Assembly (NCBI GenBank): GCA_964356325.1
Contig: CAYHHL010000002.1
Location: 21,490 to 85,489 of the forward strand
Source of the DNA: an uncultured Enterobacteriaceae bacterium
GTDB lineage: Bacteria > Myxococcota_A > UBA9042
Direction: 5' to 3'
DNA length: 64,000 nt
Both the position numbers and the translations under genes were made by a program. The stretch's first letter is position 1. Every line of letters starts with the position of its first letter. Under the pieces are notes generated by a model. That model did not search any database. It was not told the origin of the DNA and saw only the letters and a list, made by a program, of their open reading frames with translations. This document shows positions 17,129-56,045 of this stretch, piece after piece.

Positions 17129-18340
17129 ATGAACTGGATGAAAGCGAGCTGTACGCTGGTCGTGAGCCTGACTGCGGTCCTGGGCGCAAGCTCGGCCATG
17201 GCCTTGGAATCCTGCAACGACACCAAGGTCTGCTCCAAGGCGAGCGACACGTGCCATGGCGGCGTGTGCGTGCCCAAGGATCGCCTGTGCAAGACCGACG
17301 CCGGCTGCAAGGGCTGGCAAGTGTGCGACATGACCTGCCCGGGCGTCAGCAGCAGCCCCACCAGCGGCGGCGGCACGAGCACCCCCGGTAGCACCGGCTG
17401 CGCCAGTTCGGACGGGGACGCGTGCAGCACCAGTCCTGCGCCCTCGACCGATGGCGGCAGCAGCGGTGGCGCACGAAAGCCCAAGAGTGACGGTGGCAGT
17501 TCCGAAGATCAGGCCTTCGAGCCGGACGCCAGCGGCCTGGTGCAGCCGCCCGACGCCAGCCAGACGCCCCCGTGCCCCAAGGATCAGGGCATTTGCGTGC
17601 CCGACCTCAAGAAGGTCACAGCCCAGCCGGGTTGCGCCGAGTTCTGCAAGTCCGTGGTCACGTGCGATTTCTTGGGCGGCGACGACAGCGGCGGCGGCTC
17701 CGGCGGCTCCGGCGGCACCGAGCCGAGCCCTCCGCCGCCCGGGCCCAAGGACGGCGGCAGCAGCGGCGCACCCCAGGAGATCGACGCCGGCTCGACGGGC
17801 CAAGATCCGATGCCGGACGCCGGCGCCAAGAAGATGCCCAGCGACGCGGCCGGATTCGTGGCTCCAGATGCCGGTCCGAAGCAGGGCGACATCGACCAAT
17901 GCGTGCAGATGTGCAGCGTATGGAAGCTCGAAGGCGTCGCCCAGCCCGAGTTCACCGCCCTGGCCATGTGCGTCGCCGGCAAGAGTGGCGTGTGCAACGA
18001 GATGGAACTGGCCTGCAAGGACGCCGGCGATGCGTTCATCAACGCCGCGAAGGCCAACGACTTCTGGATGATCGCCCTGCAGGGTAGCGTCGCGGTTGGC
18101 GGCTCCAACGGCACCGGCGAGACCAAGGGCGCCGACGCGGTGGGCACGACCACACCGCAGGGATCGGACGTCAAGACCGGGGGCGATGCGGTCGCCAACA
18201 CCGGCGCGGCCAGCGGCAGTGGCAACAGCACGACCAGCGGCTGCACGGCCGGACCGACCGCCAATGGCACGCCGTGGGGCCTCGCCCTGCTGAGCCTGCT
18301 GGGACTCGGGATGGTGTTCCGGCGCCGCAACGTGGTGTAA
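17129..18340 (+). CDS. Secreted Cys-rich, Gly/Ser/Pro-rich protein with a MYXO-CTERM sorting signal
   Basis: Signal peptide MNWMKASCTLVVSLTAVLGASSAMA is followed by a Cys-rich N-domain. The C-terminus ...SGCTAGPTANGTPWGLALLSLLGLGMVFRRRNVV has the pattern GC, hydrophobic stretch, RRR, typical of MYXO-CTERM. RBS is GGAGGG. Confidence 0.75.
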   Translation: MNWMKASCTLVVSLTAVLGASSAMALESCNDTKVCSKASDTCHGGVCVPKDRLCKTDAGCKGWQVCDMTCPGVSSSPTSGGGTSTPGSTGCASSDGDACSTSPAPSTDGGSSGGARKPKSDGGSSEDQAFEPDASGLVQPPDASQTPPCPKDQGICVPDLKKVTAQPGCAEFCKSVVTCDFLGGDDSGGGSGGSGGTEPSPPPPGPKDGGSSGAPQEIDAGSTGQDPMPDAGAKKMPSDAAGFVAPDAGPKQGDIDQCVQMCSVWKLEGVAQPEFTALAMCVAGKSGVCNEMELACKDAGDAFINAAKANDFWMIALQGSVAVGGSNGTGETKGADAVGTTTPQGSDVKTGGDAVANTGAASGSGNSTTSGCTAGPTANGTPWGLALLSLLGLGMVFRRRNVV

Positions 18341-18375
18341 TCGAAGGTATCTGACCATGGCTCCAGGCTAAGCTG

Positions 18376-18529
18376 CCGGAGCCGTGGCCGGAGCCGAGGC
18401 CGGAGCCGGGAGCCCACGGCGGGAACGGACCTACGCCCGAACCCGAACCCGAACCCGAACCCGTTCCCGAGCCCGAACCCGTTCCCGAACCCGAACCCGT
18501 ACCCGAACCCGTGCCCGTCCCCGTCCCCG
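18376..18529. repeat. Intergenic hexanucleotide microsatellite: (GGAGCC)n followed by (CCGAAC/CCGTTC)n
   Basis: Reads gccggagccgtggccggagccgaggccggagcc...cccgaacccgaacccgaacccgaacccgttcccgagcccgaaccc..., abutting the rlmN stop. Its reverse complement is (GGTTCG)n(GGCTCC)n. Confidence 0.7.
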
Positions 18530-19702
18530 TCAACCCAGGGCCTTCTCCCCCGCCAACTGCCCACAAGCCGCGCCGATGTCTTGCCCTTTGGACTCGCGCA
18601 GGCTCACCGACGCACCGTGACGCCGCACCGTCTCCGCAAACGCCCGAATCACCGCGCGTTCCGGCCGCTGGTAGTCCGAGCCCGGCCAAGCATTGAACGG
18701 GATGACGTTGACGTGCGCGTTCAGTTCCAGCGCCATCTTCGCCAACCGTCGCGCGTCGTCCTGGCTGTCGTTCACGCCCTTGAGCAACGCGTATTCGAAG
18801 GTGATCTTACGGCTCTGGCTCGGCGGCAGATCGCGCAGGACCTGGACCATCCGCTCGATCGGTACGCCCTTGTTCACCGGCATCAGGCGGTCGCGCACCT
18901 CGTCGGTCGTCGCCGTCAGCGACCAGGCGAGATTGATGTGCGGATGCGCGGCGGCCAGCTTCGGCACGTTCTTGGCCAGGCCTGAAGTCGAGACCGTGAT
19001 GCGCCGCGGCGAGAAGTCGTAGCCCTTCGGATCGCAAAGGATGTCCAGGGCATCGAGCAGGGCCGCCAGGTTGTCCAGCGGTTCGCCCATGCCCATGAAC
19101 ACCAGGTTGTGCGGCCGCGCCGACAGCGGCCCATCCTGCCCGCCCGCCACGCCGCCGCGCCCCTGCCCTTGCGCGAACTGCAGGCGGCACGCGACAGCCA
19201 CCTGCTCGACGATTTCACCCGCGGTCAGGTCGGCCCGGTCGGGAATCCGCGCCGTCGCACAGAAGTCGCAGCCCATCTTGCAGCCGACCTGCGAGGAAAG
19301 GCATTGAGTCACAGTACTTGCGTCCGTTTCGCCGGTGTTCGCCTCCATGGGCATGATGACGGTCTCGATGCCGTGGCCTGCGCCGGTCGTGAGCACCAGC
19401 TTCTGCGAACCGTCGAGCTGCGATTGTCGATCCATTGTCATCGTCAAGACTTGCAGCGGCCGACTGAAGGCAAGCTGGCTGCGCAGGGCCGCGGGCAGGT
19501 CGGTCATCAGCGCCCAGTCGCGCACCAACCGCGCGTGCAGCCAGCGAAACACCTGCTCGGCCCGAAACGCCTTCTCGCCCGCCGCCACGAACGCCTGCAC
19601 CAGCTTGGGGCGCGGCAGCGAAAGCAAGTCCAGATCGCGAAAGGGCAAGTCCGTCTGTGGCGTTGGCGTCTGAATCGCGGTCGGTGGCAGGGCTGCGGGC
19701 AT
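18530..19702 (-). CDS. rlmN: 23S rRNA m2A2503 / tRNA m2A37 methyltransferase, radical SAM
   Basis: Carries the radical-SAM cluster motif GCKMGCDFCAT, MGMGEPLDN, and a C-terminus ...GQDIGAACGQLAG typical of RlmN. Start MPAALPPT. Confidence 0.9.
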   Translation of the reverse strand: MPAALPPTAIQTPTPQTDLPFRDLDLLSLPRPKLVQAFVAAGEKAFRAEQVFRWLHARLVRDWALMTDLPAALRSQLAFSRPLQVLTMTMDRQSQLDGSQKLVLTTGAGHGIETVIMPMEANTGETDASTVTQCLSSQVGCKMGCDFCATARIPDRADLTAGEIVEQVAVACRLQFAQGQGRGGVAGGQDGPLSARPHNLVFMGMGEPLDNLAALLDALDILCDPKGYDFSPRRITVSTSGLAKNVPKLAAAHPHINLAWSLTATTDEVRDRLMPVNKGVPIERMVQVLRDLPPSQSRKITFEYALLKGVNDSQDDARRLAKMALELNAHVNVIPFNAWPGSDYQRPERAVIRAFAETVRRHGASVSLRESKGQDIGAACGQLAGEKALG

Positions 19703-51802: not shown

Positions 51803-53218
51803 ATGACCTGCCTGGGACTTCGGCGCCTCCTCATCGCGGTGTGCCTGCTGACTGCAGGGCTCGCTCAAGCGGCGGAGCCCAAGGCTCAGGGCGCGCCTGA
51901 CGTCGACGCCGCCGTCGCCGCTCGCAAGGCCGGGCGCTACGAGGAGGCCGCGCAAATCCTGCTCGACTGGACCGCGGCGCATCCCAGCGATGCCAAGGCA
52001 TTGCATGAACTCGGCGTCTTGTACGCGCTGCATGGCCAGCTGCGCGATGCCGCCGCCCGGTTCGAAGCGACCCTCGCGCTGAATCCGGACGCGACCGAGA
52101 CACGTCGCAACCTGGCGGAAGTCCTGCGCGCCGACAATCGCTGTACGCAGGCGCTGCCGCACTACCGGACGCTGACGGGCGCGGACCTGAACGATCAGGT
52201 GGCCTTGCGCGGCATGGTGCTGTGTCGCCAGACGATGGGCCAAACCGACGCAGCGCTGCTGGTCTGTGCGGAAATCGAGCAACGCTTCGCCCAGACGCCG
52301 TTCGCGGAGTGGGCTCGCCAGCGTGCCGCGCAGATTCGCGCCCTGGCCCAAGCCGGAGCGGTGACTCCGCAGCAAGCCGACGCCGAAGGGGCTGCCCTGT
52401 TTGCAGAAAGGCGTTACGCGGATGCGGCGGCCTGGCTGGCCAAGGCGCTGGCGCTGCAACCGACTGCGGACCGGAGCTATCGCCTGGCGATGGCGCAGCT
52501 GGGCGCGGGGGACATGCTGCCGGCATTGGCCAGTCTGCAGCGGGCGTTGCAGATCGATTCGCACCACGTCGCGTCGCTTTCCGCGTGGCCGACCGTGGCC
52601 AAGGCCCTGCGTCTGCAAGGCAATGGCGGTGTCGACGTCGAGTTCGCGCGCCAGACGCGGACCCCGGTGCAAAGGGTGGCCAACGCGCTGGCCGAAGGCG
52701 ATCTGGTCCTGGCGCGACAACTGCTGAAAACGACACTGCAACCGGCCAAGGACGGCGACGGCAAGCTGCCGCCGGGCGCGGTGCTGGCGGTGCTGAACGG
52801 CGAAGTCCTGTTGCGCGAAGGCAAGCTGGCGCAAGCGGTGCAGGCATTCCAGGACGCGTTGCTGCAGCGACCCAAGTACCCCGCGGCGATCAAGGGGCTG
52901 GCAGCGGTGTACGTGTTGCAGGGCAGATACCAGGACGCAAGGGATCTCGCCAAGTTGCCAGCGCAAGCCAATGTCGCGCCTGACCACGCCCAGGACGATC
53001 TGCAGCGCTACGTGGCCCTGCGCCGCGCCGAGCTGATGCACCAGTTGCAGATGGCGGACGATCCAGGCCTGAAGCCCTTGCCGGCGCTGGTCGATCAGGT
53101 GGCCGATGCCACGCCGCCGCCACCTCCGCCGCCGCCACCTGCCGTTGAACCGGCGCCCGAGCCCGTCAAGGCCAAGGGCAAGGCGGCGACCAAGGGCAAG
53201 GCGGGTCGACGCAAGTGA
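51803..53218 (+). CDS. Secreted TPR-repeat protein with a Pro/Lys-rich tail
   Basis: Signal peptide MTCLGLRRLLIAVCLLTAGLAQA. Multiple TPR units (..AKALHELGVLYALHGQLRDAAARFEATLALNPD..). C-terminus [34 protein letters not shown]. Confidence 0.7.
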   Translation: MTCLGLRRLLIAVCLLTAGLAQAAEPKAQGAPDVDAAVAARKAGRYEEAAQILLDWTAAHPSDAKALHELGVLYALHGQLRDAAARFEATLALNPDATETRRNLAEVLRADNRCTQALPHYRTLTGADLNDQVALRGMVLCRQTMGQTDAALLVCAEIEQRFAQTPFAEWARQRAAQIRALAQAGAVTPQQADAEGAALFAERRYADAAAWLAKALALQPTADRSYRLAMAQLGAGDMLPALASLQRALQIDSHHVASLSAWPTVAKALRLQGNGGVDVEFARQTRTPVQRVANALAEGDLVLARQLLKTTLQPAKDGDGKLPPGAVLAVLNGEVLLREGKLAQAVQAFQDALLQRPKYPAAIKGLAAVYVLQGRYQDARDLAKLPAQANVAPDHAQDDLQRYVALRRAELMHQLQMADDPGLKPLPALVDQVADATPPPPPPPPPAVEPAPEPVKAKGKAATKGKAGRRK

Positions 53219-54618
53219 GTTCAAGGCCAGCGGATTCACCCGACGTTCAAACGGACGGCAGCGGCAGCTTGCGCGGCACGGTGCTCATGCCGGCGGCGGA
53301 CGGCTCGGTAGGGTTGCTGGAGGATGCGGTCATCCGGTGGGAATCTGGGCGGATCGTGGGGGTCGAACCTTCGGGGTCGGGGTCGGGTTCGGGATCGGGT
53401 TCGGGTTCGGGTTCGGGTGCGGGTTCGGGTTCGAGTTCGGGTTCGGGCATGAGTTCCGGCTCCGGTTCCGGCTCCGGTTCCGGCTCCGGCCCCGGCTCCG
53501 GTTCCGGTTCCGGCTCAAGCTCCGGCGAGTGGCTCCTCCTGCCCGGCTTCGTCGACCTGCACTGCCACTGGCCGCAAGCCCACGTGCGCGGTCAGTTTTC
53601 TGGCCAGCTGCTGCCCTGGCTGCGCGAGTCGATCTGGCCTGCCGAAGCCGCCTTTGCCGATGCCGAGGTCGCGCGCGTGCGGGCCCAGGCGTTCCTGCGC
53701 GAGGCGATTGCGGCTGGCACTTGCGCCGGGCTGCTGTTCGGCCCGCCGTTTCTCGAAGCGAGCTTGCAGTTCCTGAGGTTGGCGCCGCGCGGCTTCTTCG
53801 ATGGCCCGGCGCTGATGGAGGCGCACGCTCCCGAAGCGCTGTTGCGACCGGCCGCGCACACGCTGGACGCCCTGGCCGGCCTGCCGCCCGAAGTGCGCGA
53901 ACGCCTGGTGATTTCTCCCCGTTTTGCCCCGAGCCTGACCGCCGAGGGGCTGGTGCAGTGCGGAGCGGCGGTGCAGGCGTTGGCACTGGCCGCGCAAAGC
54001 CACCTCTCGGAGAACCTGGACGAGATCGCCTGGGTGCGCGAGCTGTTCCCACAAGCCATTGATTATACAGACGTCTATGATCGCGCCGGCTTGCTGGGCC
54101 CGCGCACGGTGATGGCCCACGGCGTGCATCTGTCCGCGCGCGAACTGGATCGGCTGGCGGCGACCGGCACGATGCTCGCGCACTGCCCGACCAGCAACGC
54201 GGCGCTGGGCAGCGGTCGCATGCCCCTGGAACTCATTCGTAAACACGGGGTGGACTGGGTGCTGGCAACCGACGTGGGTGCGGGCCCCTTGCTCAGCCAA
54301 TTGGACGTGATGCGCGCCTGCCTGGAGCAGCACGCCGGGCACGCCGAGATCGCCGCGACGGAAGCGTTGAGCCGCAGCACGGCGATTCCAGGCGCATTCC
54401 TGGCACGGCTGGATCCGACGCTGGCCGGTCTGGGCACCTTCGAACCTGGAGCGCCCGCCCACATCGTCGCGCTGCCCCGGCCCGCAGGGCGCGCCGATGC
54501 CGAAGGTCTGCTGCGATCGCTGCTGAAGACGCCGCGCGAGGCCTTGGAGACGTTGCCGCTTCAGGTGGTGTCGTGGGGCGTGACGCAAGGTCCCGAGGCG
54601 CTGCACCGGCCGCTGTGA
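53215..54618 (+). CDS. guaD: Guanine deaminase (amidohydrolase superfamily) with an internal Ser/Gly repeat insertion
   Basis: [12 protein letters not shown] is the HxH site. [37 protein letters not shown] and ATDVGAG align closely to E. coli GuaD. A 52-aa (SG)n insert lies between the N-terminal beta-sandwich strand and the HxH motif. GTG start overlaps the upstream stop. Confidence 0.85.
53371..53526 (+). repeat. Coding hexanucleotide microsatellite (GGGTTC)n(GGCTCC)n, frame-neutral, encoding (SG)n
   Basis: tcggggtcggggtcgggttcgggatcgggttcgggttcggg...ggctccggttccggctccggttccggc. Same unit family as the intergenic repeat at 18376..18529. Confidence 0.8.
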
Positions 54619-56003: not shown

Positions 56004-56045
56004 CGCAACATCGGATAGCGCAACATCGGATAGCGCAATATCGAG
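56004..56045. repeat. 15-bp tandem direct repeat (2.8 copies) in the argG-prs intergenic region
   Basis: cgcaacatcggatag | cgcaacatcggatag | cgcaatatcgag, immediately before the prs RBS GAGGG. Confidence 0.6.

Follow-up and report, generated by a model that had tools for sequence, protein, structure and literature searches.

Two compound hexanucleotide arrays in one bacterial genome: an in-frame repeat varying between near-identical strains within a probable guanine deaminase gene, and a probably related copy behind rlmN

The window analysed here, a 64-kb stretch of DNA, carries a compound hexanucleotide repeat twice, once directly behind the rlmN gene and once, 35 kb away, inside the coding sequence of a metabolic enzyme. 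This raises the question of whether both arrays descend from a common source and whether either of them has a function. Tandem Repeats Finder (TRF) detects strong period-6 arrays at exactly two loci of the window (18375-18530 and 53371-53526; Table 1). On their G-rich strand, both are made up of (GGGNNC)n followed by GGCTCC-type units. All 22 matches to (GGGTTC)3, with three mismatches at most, fall within these two loci, as do all 12 matches to (GGCTCC)3, where shuffled sequences lead to an expectation of 0.06 and 0.38 matches, respectively. A generic period-6 scan saw no third array in the 64 kb, and a further ~13 kb of this organism (L139, L141) and ~38 kb of its relatives proved to be free of hexamer arrays. 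These analyses confirm the two-copy repeat that had been noticed in a previous sequence-only reading of the window; the search for further copies that it proposed covered about 77 kb of this genome and yields these two arrays. The window, whose GC content is 67% (range 65-71%), comes from a myxobacterium: a neighbour of locus 1 encodes a MYXO-CTERM sorting signal at its end, and the close homologues of both genes studied here are all from uncultured Myxococcales/Myxococcota assemblies. One candidate for a third array, a 100-N scaffold gap in L139 (6271-6370, ERZ4201063) that lies just past the right end of the window within an ABC_transp_aux gene, was rejected, as L140 (ERZ4201064) shows non-repetitive coding sequence there.

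Table 1 Positions in the window of the two hexanucleotide arrays and of the genes that contain or border them
Feature	Position	Strand	Description	Evidence
MYXO-CTERM secreted protein gene	17129..18340	+	Low-complexity protein; convergent to rlmN	NCBIfam TIGR03901, 26.2 bits (cut-off 20)
Locus 1, block 2	18375..18414	-	About 3 copies of the 12-nt GGCTCC-GGCCNC	TRF (18375-18414: period 6, 6.5 copies; period 12 fits better, 2.8 copies, 95% matches); pattern matches
Locus 1, junction	18415..18435	-	21 nt; degenerate units GGGCGT AGGTCC GTTCCC GCC	
Locus 1, block 1	18436..18529	-	About 16 GGGNNC units, consensus GGGTTC	TRF (18436-18530: period 6, 15.8 copies); pattern matches
rlmN	18530..19702	-	Dual-specificity RNA methyltransferase	NCBIfam TIGR00048, 320.6 bits (cut-off 290)
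Guanine-deaminase-family amidohydrolase gene	53215..54618	+	Probable GuaD, 467 aa	Pfam Amidohydro_1; NCBIfam and PDB matches
Locus 2, block 1	53371..53448	+	(TCG GGT)13-type, in frame, 26 aa	TRF (53370-53447: 13.0 copies); pattern matches; translation
Locus 2, junction	53449..53454	+	ATG AGT (Met-Ser); kept in the L002 allele	
Locus 2, block 2	53455..53526	+	(TCC GGY)12-type, 24 aa	TRF (53455-53526: 12.0 copies); pattern matches; translation

The coding array (locus 2) interrupts a gene whose product is probably a guanine deaminase. The best NCBIfam families of this protein are guanine deaminases (TIGR02967 and NF006679), with scores below their cut-offs (249.6 versus 351 bits and 247.5 versus 375.4 bits, respectively), partly because the insert splits off the N-terminal 65 positions of the profile. 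The catalytic and metal-binding motifs (HxH...Q, H-x-x-E, the distal His, CPTSN and the Asp) are present and align with those of the E. coli GuaD (6ohb), and the residues H116, H118, Q121, H263, E266, H302, C324-N328 and D353 are invariant in an alignment of 31 sequences. Among PDB sequences, the best match is 6ohb (E = 2.4e-45), followed by the yeast, Clostridium, Bradyrhizobium and human enzymes, and the top 13 Foldseek matches of the model consist of guanine deaminases and a design based on one of them (TM 0.72-0.77). The name guaD that the sequence-only reading gave to this gene is reasonable by its motifs and its best PDB relatives, but remains under the curated cut-offs of NCBIfam; based on motifs and model, the enzyme belongs to the guanine deaminase family and is probably GuaD.

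The array measures 156 nt, that is, 52 codons in frame, and encodes a Ser-Gly loop that corresponds to residues 53-104 of the deaminase; the translation of 52 residues that had been given for it is an exact match. The alignment, the AlphaFold2 model and the PDB match also agree with the position originally proposed for the insert, in an otherwise conserved enzyme, after the N-terminal beta-strands and ahead of the HxH motif. None of the 30 aligned homologues (55-70% identity) has the Ser-Gly insert, and they display at this point a loop of 5-20 residues with variable sequence. The array is lacking in the 400-aa deaminase of L138, where the same genes (those for a TPR protein, the deaminase, argG and prs) are found in synteny, and likewise in the syntenic orthologue of L137. 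The alignment of guaD orthologues that had been suggested as a check thus shows the insert to be lineage-specific. The AlphaFold2 model, built with the homologue alignment, has a mean pLDDT of 88.8 (about 97 in the core, with most blocks at 96-99), and its residues ~53-102 have a pLDDT of 45-49 and no secondary structure. This low-confidence segment bridges the strand 46-52 and the strand 106-110, the latter running into the HxH motif. The model, a check that the sequence-only reading had suggested, fits a disordered, exposed and flexible loop, and the intact motifs and open reading frame suggest that the enzyme tolerates it. The Gly codons of the array are GGT in 52% of cases, compared with 16% in the genes of the window; this excess is consistent with a single seed unit having been amplified, as opposed to selection on codons. 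The deaminase gene starts with a GTG that overlaps the TGA stop codon of the upstream TPR-protein gene (GTGA, 53215-53218); L137, a relative, has this 4-nt overlap too, and the two genes may thus be translationally coupled.

A search for exact matches to ArgG, which is encoded next to the deaminase, retrieved two metagenome contigs from ENA that come from two samples and carry the array, L001 (ERZ4201063) and L002 (ERZ4201064). The array of L001 is the same as that of the window, and L002 provides the single alternative coding allele, in a contig that begins inside the repeat and therefore misses its 5' part. The flanks of the L002 array differ from the window at 3 of 4,024 nt (99.93% identity), and all three differences are synonymous. 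Yet, between the internal Met and the GEW motif, L002 has 33 codons and the window 25 (+24 nt, or four units), and the reading frame is preserved. Moreover, the blocks are rearranged: the L002 array holds several Pro-Gly units, and where the window has the 3' part of the TCC-GGY block, it has another (GGT TCG)n block in which the GCG variant of block 1 recurs. The idea that the 6-nt unit would allow in-frame changes of length, for which a comparison of copy numbers across strains had been recommended, is borne out by these alleles over the part that can be compared. Since the L002 array is rearranged and its flanks are near-identical to those of the window, the coding array is hypermutable, with unit gain and block duplication far outpacing the substitutions in the flanks and with the frame kept.

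Some other differences were observed in L001, a contig of the same strain as the window, where the gene caller placed the start of the deaminase at the Met within the repeat. Three of the four differences between L001 and the window over 8.2 kb lie in the deaminase gene. They include a 1-nt deletion in a C4 run that shifts the frame (L001 3911-3912, window ~53927) and a change of GCG to GAG that replaces Ala by Glu in the near-invariant TDVGAG motif (L001 4265, window ~54281). These changes could mean that, in part of the population, selection on the gene is relaxed or the gene is becoming a pseudogene, but they could also be errors at 5x coverage.

The second array (locus 1) is situated in a 189-nt spacer that is bounded by two convergent genes, rlmN and the gene of a MYXO-CTERM protein, and it does not code for protein in the current arrangement of the genes. 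The stop codon of rlmN (TGA) occupies 18532-18530 on the minus strand and the repeat begins at 18529, in agreement with the earlier description of a non-coding copy that abuts this codon. The two-block architecture that was said to be shared with the coding copy stands as regards the order of the blocks on the G-rich strand; it is weaker as regards block 2, which has only about three GGCTCC units in locus 1 and is far shorter and more degenerate than the 12-unit block of the deaminase gene. The junction holds both blocks of locus 1 in a single reading register, and translation reveals a Ser/Thr-Gly frame that is open across both. Among 15 GGGNNC units of block 1, the 12 deviations all affect two of the six positions, which in this frame are the third codon position of Gly and the first codon position of Ser/Thr; the GGG tracts are invariant and the loop positions vary. 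Seven units are of the Thr type (ACG), which is found in neither deaminase allele. Judged from the sequence, this pattern of variation and the common frame resemble the footprint of a coding sequence, although the DNA is non-coding today. The exact RlmN protein also occurs in an independent ENA contig, L003, in which block 1 is identical and the gene call also includes the MYXO-CTERM neighbour. The MYXO-CTERM protein is itself rich in Gly/Ser/Pro low-complexity segments (GGGSGGSGG, PSPPPPGP) and has no Pfam domain.

The age of the intergenic array can be approached through the relatives of RlmN, among which the search found one protein with 93% identity (P0121) and one with 85% (P0122). The genome of the former (contig L123) has a 123-nt spacer without the hexamer array. 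In the latter (L124-L128), the gene order matches that of the window over 20 kb, and the spacer has 590 nt and contains three tandem copies of an unrelated element of ~180 nt at which several contigs break. Since both relatives lack it, the array of locus 1 is recent in this lineage. When the window is aligned with L123, block 1 has no counterpart, and the last GCTCCGGC of block 2 and the next 32 nt align with GCTCCGGCGCGTTCG... of L123, at an equal distance from the stop codon of the neighbouring gene as in the window. Block 2 of locus 1 may thus be partly ancestral. The C-terminal tails of RlmN after AGE(K/Q) differ in all three genomes (EKALG, EKRA and EQAPAPSL), and the last codons and stop codon of rlmN in the window resemble a degenerate edge of the repeat (GGGTTGAC). 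We infer that the array replaced some 60-80 nt of the ancestral spacer together with the original stop codon of rlmN, and did so in this lineage only. The ~180-nt element of the 85% relative (L124 11176-11700, also in L125-L128, with two contigs ending within it) has no Rfam match and is not found in the window; each of its copies opens with a hairpin that has a 13-bp stem (gagaggttgtgaa atcttcg ttcacaacctctc).

Whether the two arrays are related was evaluated against the background of similar repeats. A scan for (GGGTTC)3 using one genome per species found at least 119 loci in Actinomycetota, Myxococcota, Proteobacteria and other groups. Most of the 119 arrays listed are in long ORFs, where their reading frame is EP, SG, GF or PN, and compound arrays with blocks of GGCTCG/GGCTCC are numerous. 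The hexamer unit itself is therefore widespread in GC-rich bacteria and this type of repeat is not special. Three landmarks, chosen after seeing both arrays of the window and defined so that both have them, are rare among the independent arrays listed: two GGGGNC units at the 5' edge occur in 1 of 119, the junction GGGC[AG]T[AG][AG]GT.?CC in 0 of 119, and at least three GGCTCC units downstream with none upstream in 2 of 119, a rarity that overstates their significance because of this post hoc choice. The junction of locus 1 resembles that of the deaminase gene (GGGCAT GAGTTCC), and the junction motif is present in 8 contigs of the whole JGI metagenome set, all of them from unrelated organisms. 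When units were shuffled within blocks, 47 of 2000 shuffles reached the observed alignment score for the whole array (~p = 0.02); for block 1 alone, 287 of 2000 shuffles scored as high, which is not significant.

Two main scenarios may explain the similarity of the arrays. One possibility is that they descend from each other or from a third array. The sequence-only reading had preferred such a common origin; the rare landmarks, the shuffles of the whole array, the coding-like variation in locus 1 and the absence of further arrays from the sequence covered are in its favor, whereas the post hoc nature of the landmarks, the result for block 1 and the ancestral end of block 2 in locus 1 weigh against it. 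In particular, the 3' end of this block appears to be homologous to the ancestral spacer, so the two-block likeness may be partly coincidental. In addition, since the Thr-type ACG units are in neither deaminase allele, the deaminase array would not be the direct donor of locus 1 unless they diverged later. All in all, common descent appears moderately probable. Alternatively, each array could have grown in place by slippage from a local seed, a scenario which is tenable but seems rather unlikely to us. In that case, the likeness would result from GGKTCS-type hexamers being favored in GC-rich genomes and from synonymous variants forming blocks. The many loci of the (GGGTTC)3 scan, often compound, would be congruent with this scenario, as would the junction-like motifs that recur in unrelated metagenome contigs and the unit order of block 1, which is not significantly alike. 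L123 also has GCTCCGGC at the position of block 2 of locus 1, which makes it a possible local seed. Nevertheless, these are the sole two period-6 arrays in ~77 kb of this genome, with none in ~38 kb of relatives, and they have in common the unit, the block order and three landmarks, each seen in at most 2 of the 119 arrays listed. The shuffles of the whole array (~p = 0.02) also speak against independent growth, and a non-coding array would have no reason to follow one Ser-Gly frame with codon-silent variation.

On balance, the best explanation seems to be, with moderate probability, that the window holds two related and nearly neutral copies of a hypermutable compound hexanucleotide microsatellite, whose units read as Ser/Thr-Gly on the G-rich strand and as Pro-Glu on the other. 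The deaminase array occupies a surface loop that is variable by nature, with the last strand of the N-terminal beta-sandwich on one side and the strand bearing the HxH motif on the other. Gain, loss and reshuffling of units, by replication slippage or by unequal or intra-array recombination, would then merely change how long a disordered Ser-Gly loop is and what it is composed of, and would leave the frame untouched, since the unit has 6 nt. The outcome, in-frame variation of length and blocks between near-identical strains, is what the L002 allele displays. The intergenic copy, a recent arrival in this lineage, would most likely derive from a coding-type array, either that of the deaminase or a third copy, by ectopic copying perhaps anchored on a pre-existing GCTCCGGC in the spacer. 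Both copies would result from repeat instability and be tolerated, one in a protein loop and the other in the spacer between convergent genes. Their near neutrality is suggested by their lack of conservation, and no sign of a conserved function for either copy was found in the terminator and Rfam searches, the folding analyses or the comparison with relatives.

A related observation comes from a Kofleriaceae MAG (JAGPCY01), in which non-coding compound arrays of the type (TCGGAC)n(TCGGTC)n(TCGGGT)n... are found on two different contigs (L007 1877-2024 and L050 1254-1390). They are ~85% identical, including ~30 nt of the 5' flank, and look like dispersed copies of one array; the first precedes a lipoprotein gene or follows a yrdC-like gene, and the second has the other of these two positions. 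A more speculative scenario, which we find doubtful, is that compound hexamer microsatellites of Myxococcota spread between loci as units, and that a coding array was in this way copied ectopically into the spacer, where it remodelled the end of rlmN. The route may be microhomology-anchored template switching or gene conversion, which would also explain the Kofleriaceae pair. If true, this would be a route without transposase that seeds low-complexity protein segments and G4-prone DNA around GC-rich genomes.

The arrays could also matter as nucleic acid structures. According to this hypothesis, the (GGGNNC)n tracts would form G-quadruplexes (G4) or G.U-rich hairpins, acting as a terminator or insulator between rlmN and the MYXO-CTERM gene and as a translation brake in the deaminase mRNA. 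We consider it improbable. All six motifs of the type G3N1-7 x4 in the window are in the arrays, four of them in locus 1 (minus strand, rlmN sense) and two in locus 2 (plus strand, coding), and the invariant GGG tracts with variable loop positions in locus 1 would suit such structures. The spacer (18341-18529) is also devoid of an intrinsic terminator made of a GC-rich hairpin and a U-tract, and G4 repeats are described in PMC7023247 as unstable and as blocking replication in E. coli. Yet the array is lacking in the two closest relatives, whose spacers are unrelated, and this argues against a required function of the intergenic copy. Folding energies are no better than those of shuffled sequences (z-scores of -1.24 for the RNA of locus 1 and +1.06 for the DNA of locus 2), there is no Rfam match, and the G4 formation is a prediction from sequence. 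A hairpin or terminator function of the spacer was accordingly discarded, given the absence of a terminator-like site and the unremarkable fold z-scores, as was a known RNA family, for which the spacer array has no Rfam match. A structural role of the arrays, or an instability driven by structure, is a possible reading of their sequence.

It is highly improbable that locus 1 is or was translated, be it as a C-terminal extension of RlmN by read-through of the weak TGA-C stop, by frameshift or as a small ORF. The rlmN frame is open for 31 codons past the TGA and read-through would add an Arg-rich tail of 31 aa (Arg-Val/Gly), neither the Ser/Thr-Gly frame (the target of a frameshift) nor the Pro-Glu frame meets a stop codon within the array, and the variation has a codon-like pattern. 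However, open frames are expected in DNA with 67% GC, RlmN ends at an equivalent place in the relatives, and these close relatives lack the array. No start codon precedes the array in the Pro-Glu frame, and a 172-aa ORF on the minus strand overlaps both real genes. It is also hardly credible that the arrays or their differences are artefacts of misassembled short reads at low coverage. In favor of this reading are the coverage of the supporting contigs (~4-5x), the start of L002 within the repeat and the 1-nt deletion that L001 shows in another part of the deaminase gene. Against it, the arrays are imperfect (longest perfect run of 24 nt) and hence can be assembled, the coding one is an exact multiple of 3 that joins two conserved in-frame segments, and both arrays have identical bases in the window and in L001 and L003, even if these two contigs may share the reads of the window.

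As a whole, the repeat is of a known bacterial kind, the in-frame compound hexanucleotide VNTR. As in other bacterial coding microsatellites and VNTRs, 6-nt units are arranged head to tail in an intact ORF and vary between strains without frameshift, and locus 2 has a tandem unit that is a multiple of 3, is polymorphic between strains and is absent from orthologues. Compound and imperfect microsatellites are described in coding regions in PMC4700210, and PMC3013739 presents PSSRdb, a database of polymorphic prokaryotic SSRs. What is less usual is that the array lies within the fold of a metabolic enzyme, that it has a probably related non-coding copy and that it was caught varying between near-identical strains. 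Unlike the surface or virulence proteins of other VNTRs, its host is a housekeeping-type enzyme in which the array is inserted into the catalytic domain, and a copy related in sequence is found in non-coding DNA 35 kb away. The hexamer and its dipeptides are shared with the Ser-Gly and Glu-Pro linkers of secreted proteins from Myxococcota and Actinomycetota, but these linkers connect domains, whereas here the repeat is inserted in an enzyme loop and its second copy is outside genes. For instance, a secreted MYXO-CTERM-like protein from a Haliangiales MAG (L055 121-969) has a (GS)14 linker for which (GGTTCG)n(GGCTCG)n codes, so that the hexamer appears to be an ordinary linker in another myxobacterial lineage.

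The repeat was also compared with three other known systems. In phase-variable contingency loci, repeat instability similarly leads to heritable variation between close strains, but the unit of the window is a multiple of three within an ORF and the intergenic copy is 3' of both convergent genes instead of in a promoter, which rules out a phase-variation switch. The (GGGTTC)n arrays fit the consensus of canonical G4 repeats such as the telomere-like TTAGGG, a consensus that PMC6943126 quotes as (G3+N1-7)4. Contrary to what is reported for bacterial G4 motifs, they have no promoter bias, and they are not conserved in the 93% and 85% relatives. Finally, two related copies in one genome, as in the Kofleriaceae pair, are reminiscent of REP/MITE-like families. 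Nevertheless, one of the copies is coding, and the hallmarks of mobile elements (terminal inverted repeats, shared flanks and target-site duplications) were not found at the two loci of the window, which hold the two copies seen in the ~77 kb of genome covered.

The deaminase array illustrates an early stage in the entry of low-complexity disordered segments into bacterial enzymes, as its loop continues to vary even where strains share 99.9% of their other sequence. Provided that both copies do have a common origin, microsatellite arrays would be movable between coding and non-coding DNA, which would bear on the spread of linkers and of G-rich structure-prone tracts in GC-rich genomes. From a practical point of view, such arrays break short-read assemblies (as in L002, which starts inside one), mislead gene callers and lower the scores of family models below the annotation cut-offs. 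The window contains one more tandem repeat, made up of 2.7 copies of the 15-nt unit CGCAACATCGGATAG (56004-56043), which adjoins the stop codon of argG in the argG-prs spacer. It is not present in the syntenic relative L138, and it is the second tandem repeat of the window that begins directly after a stop codon.
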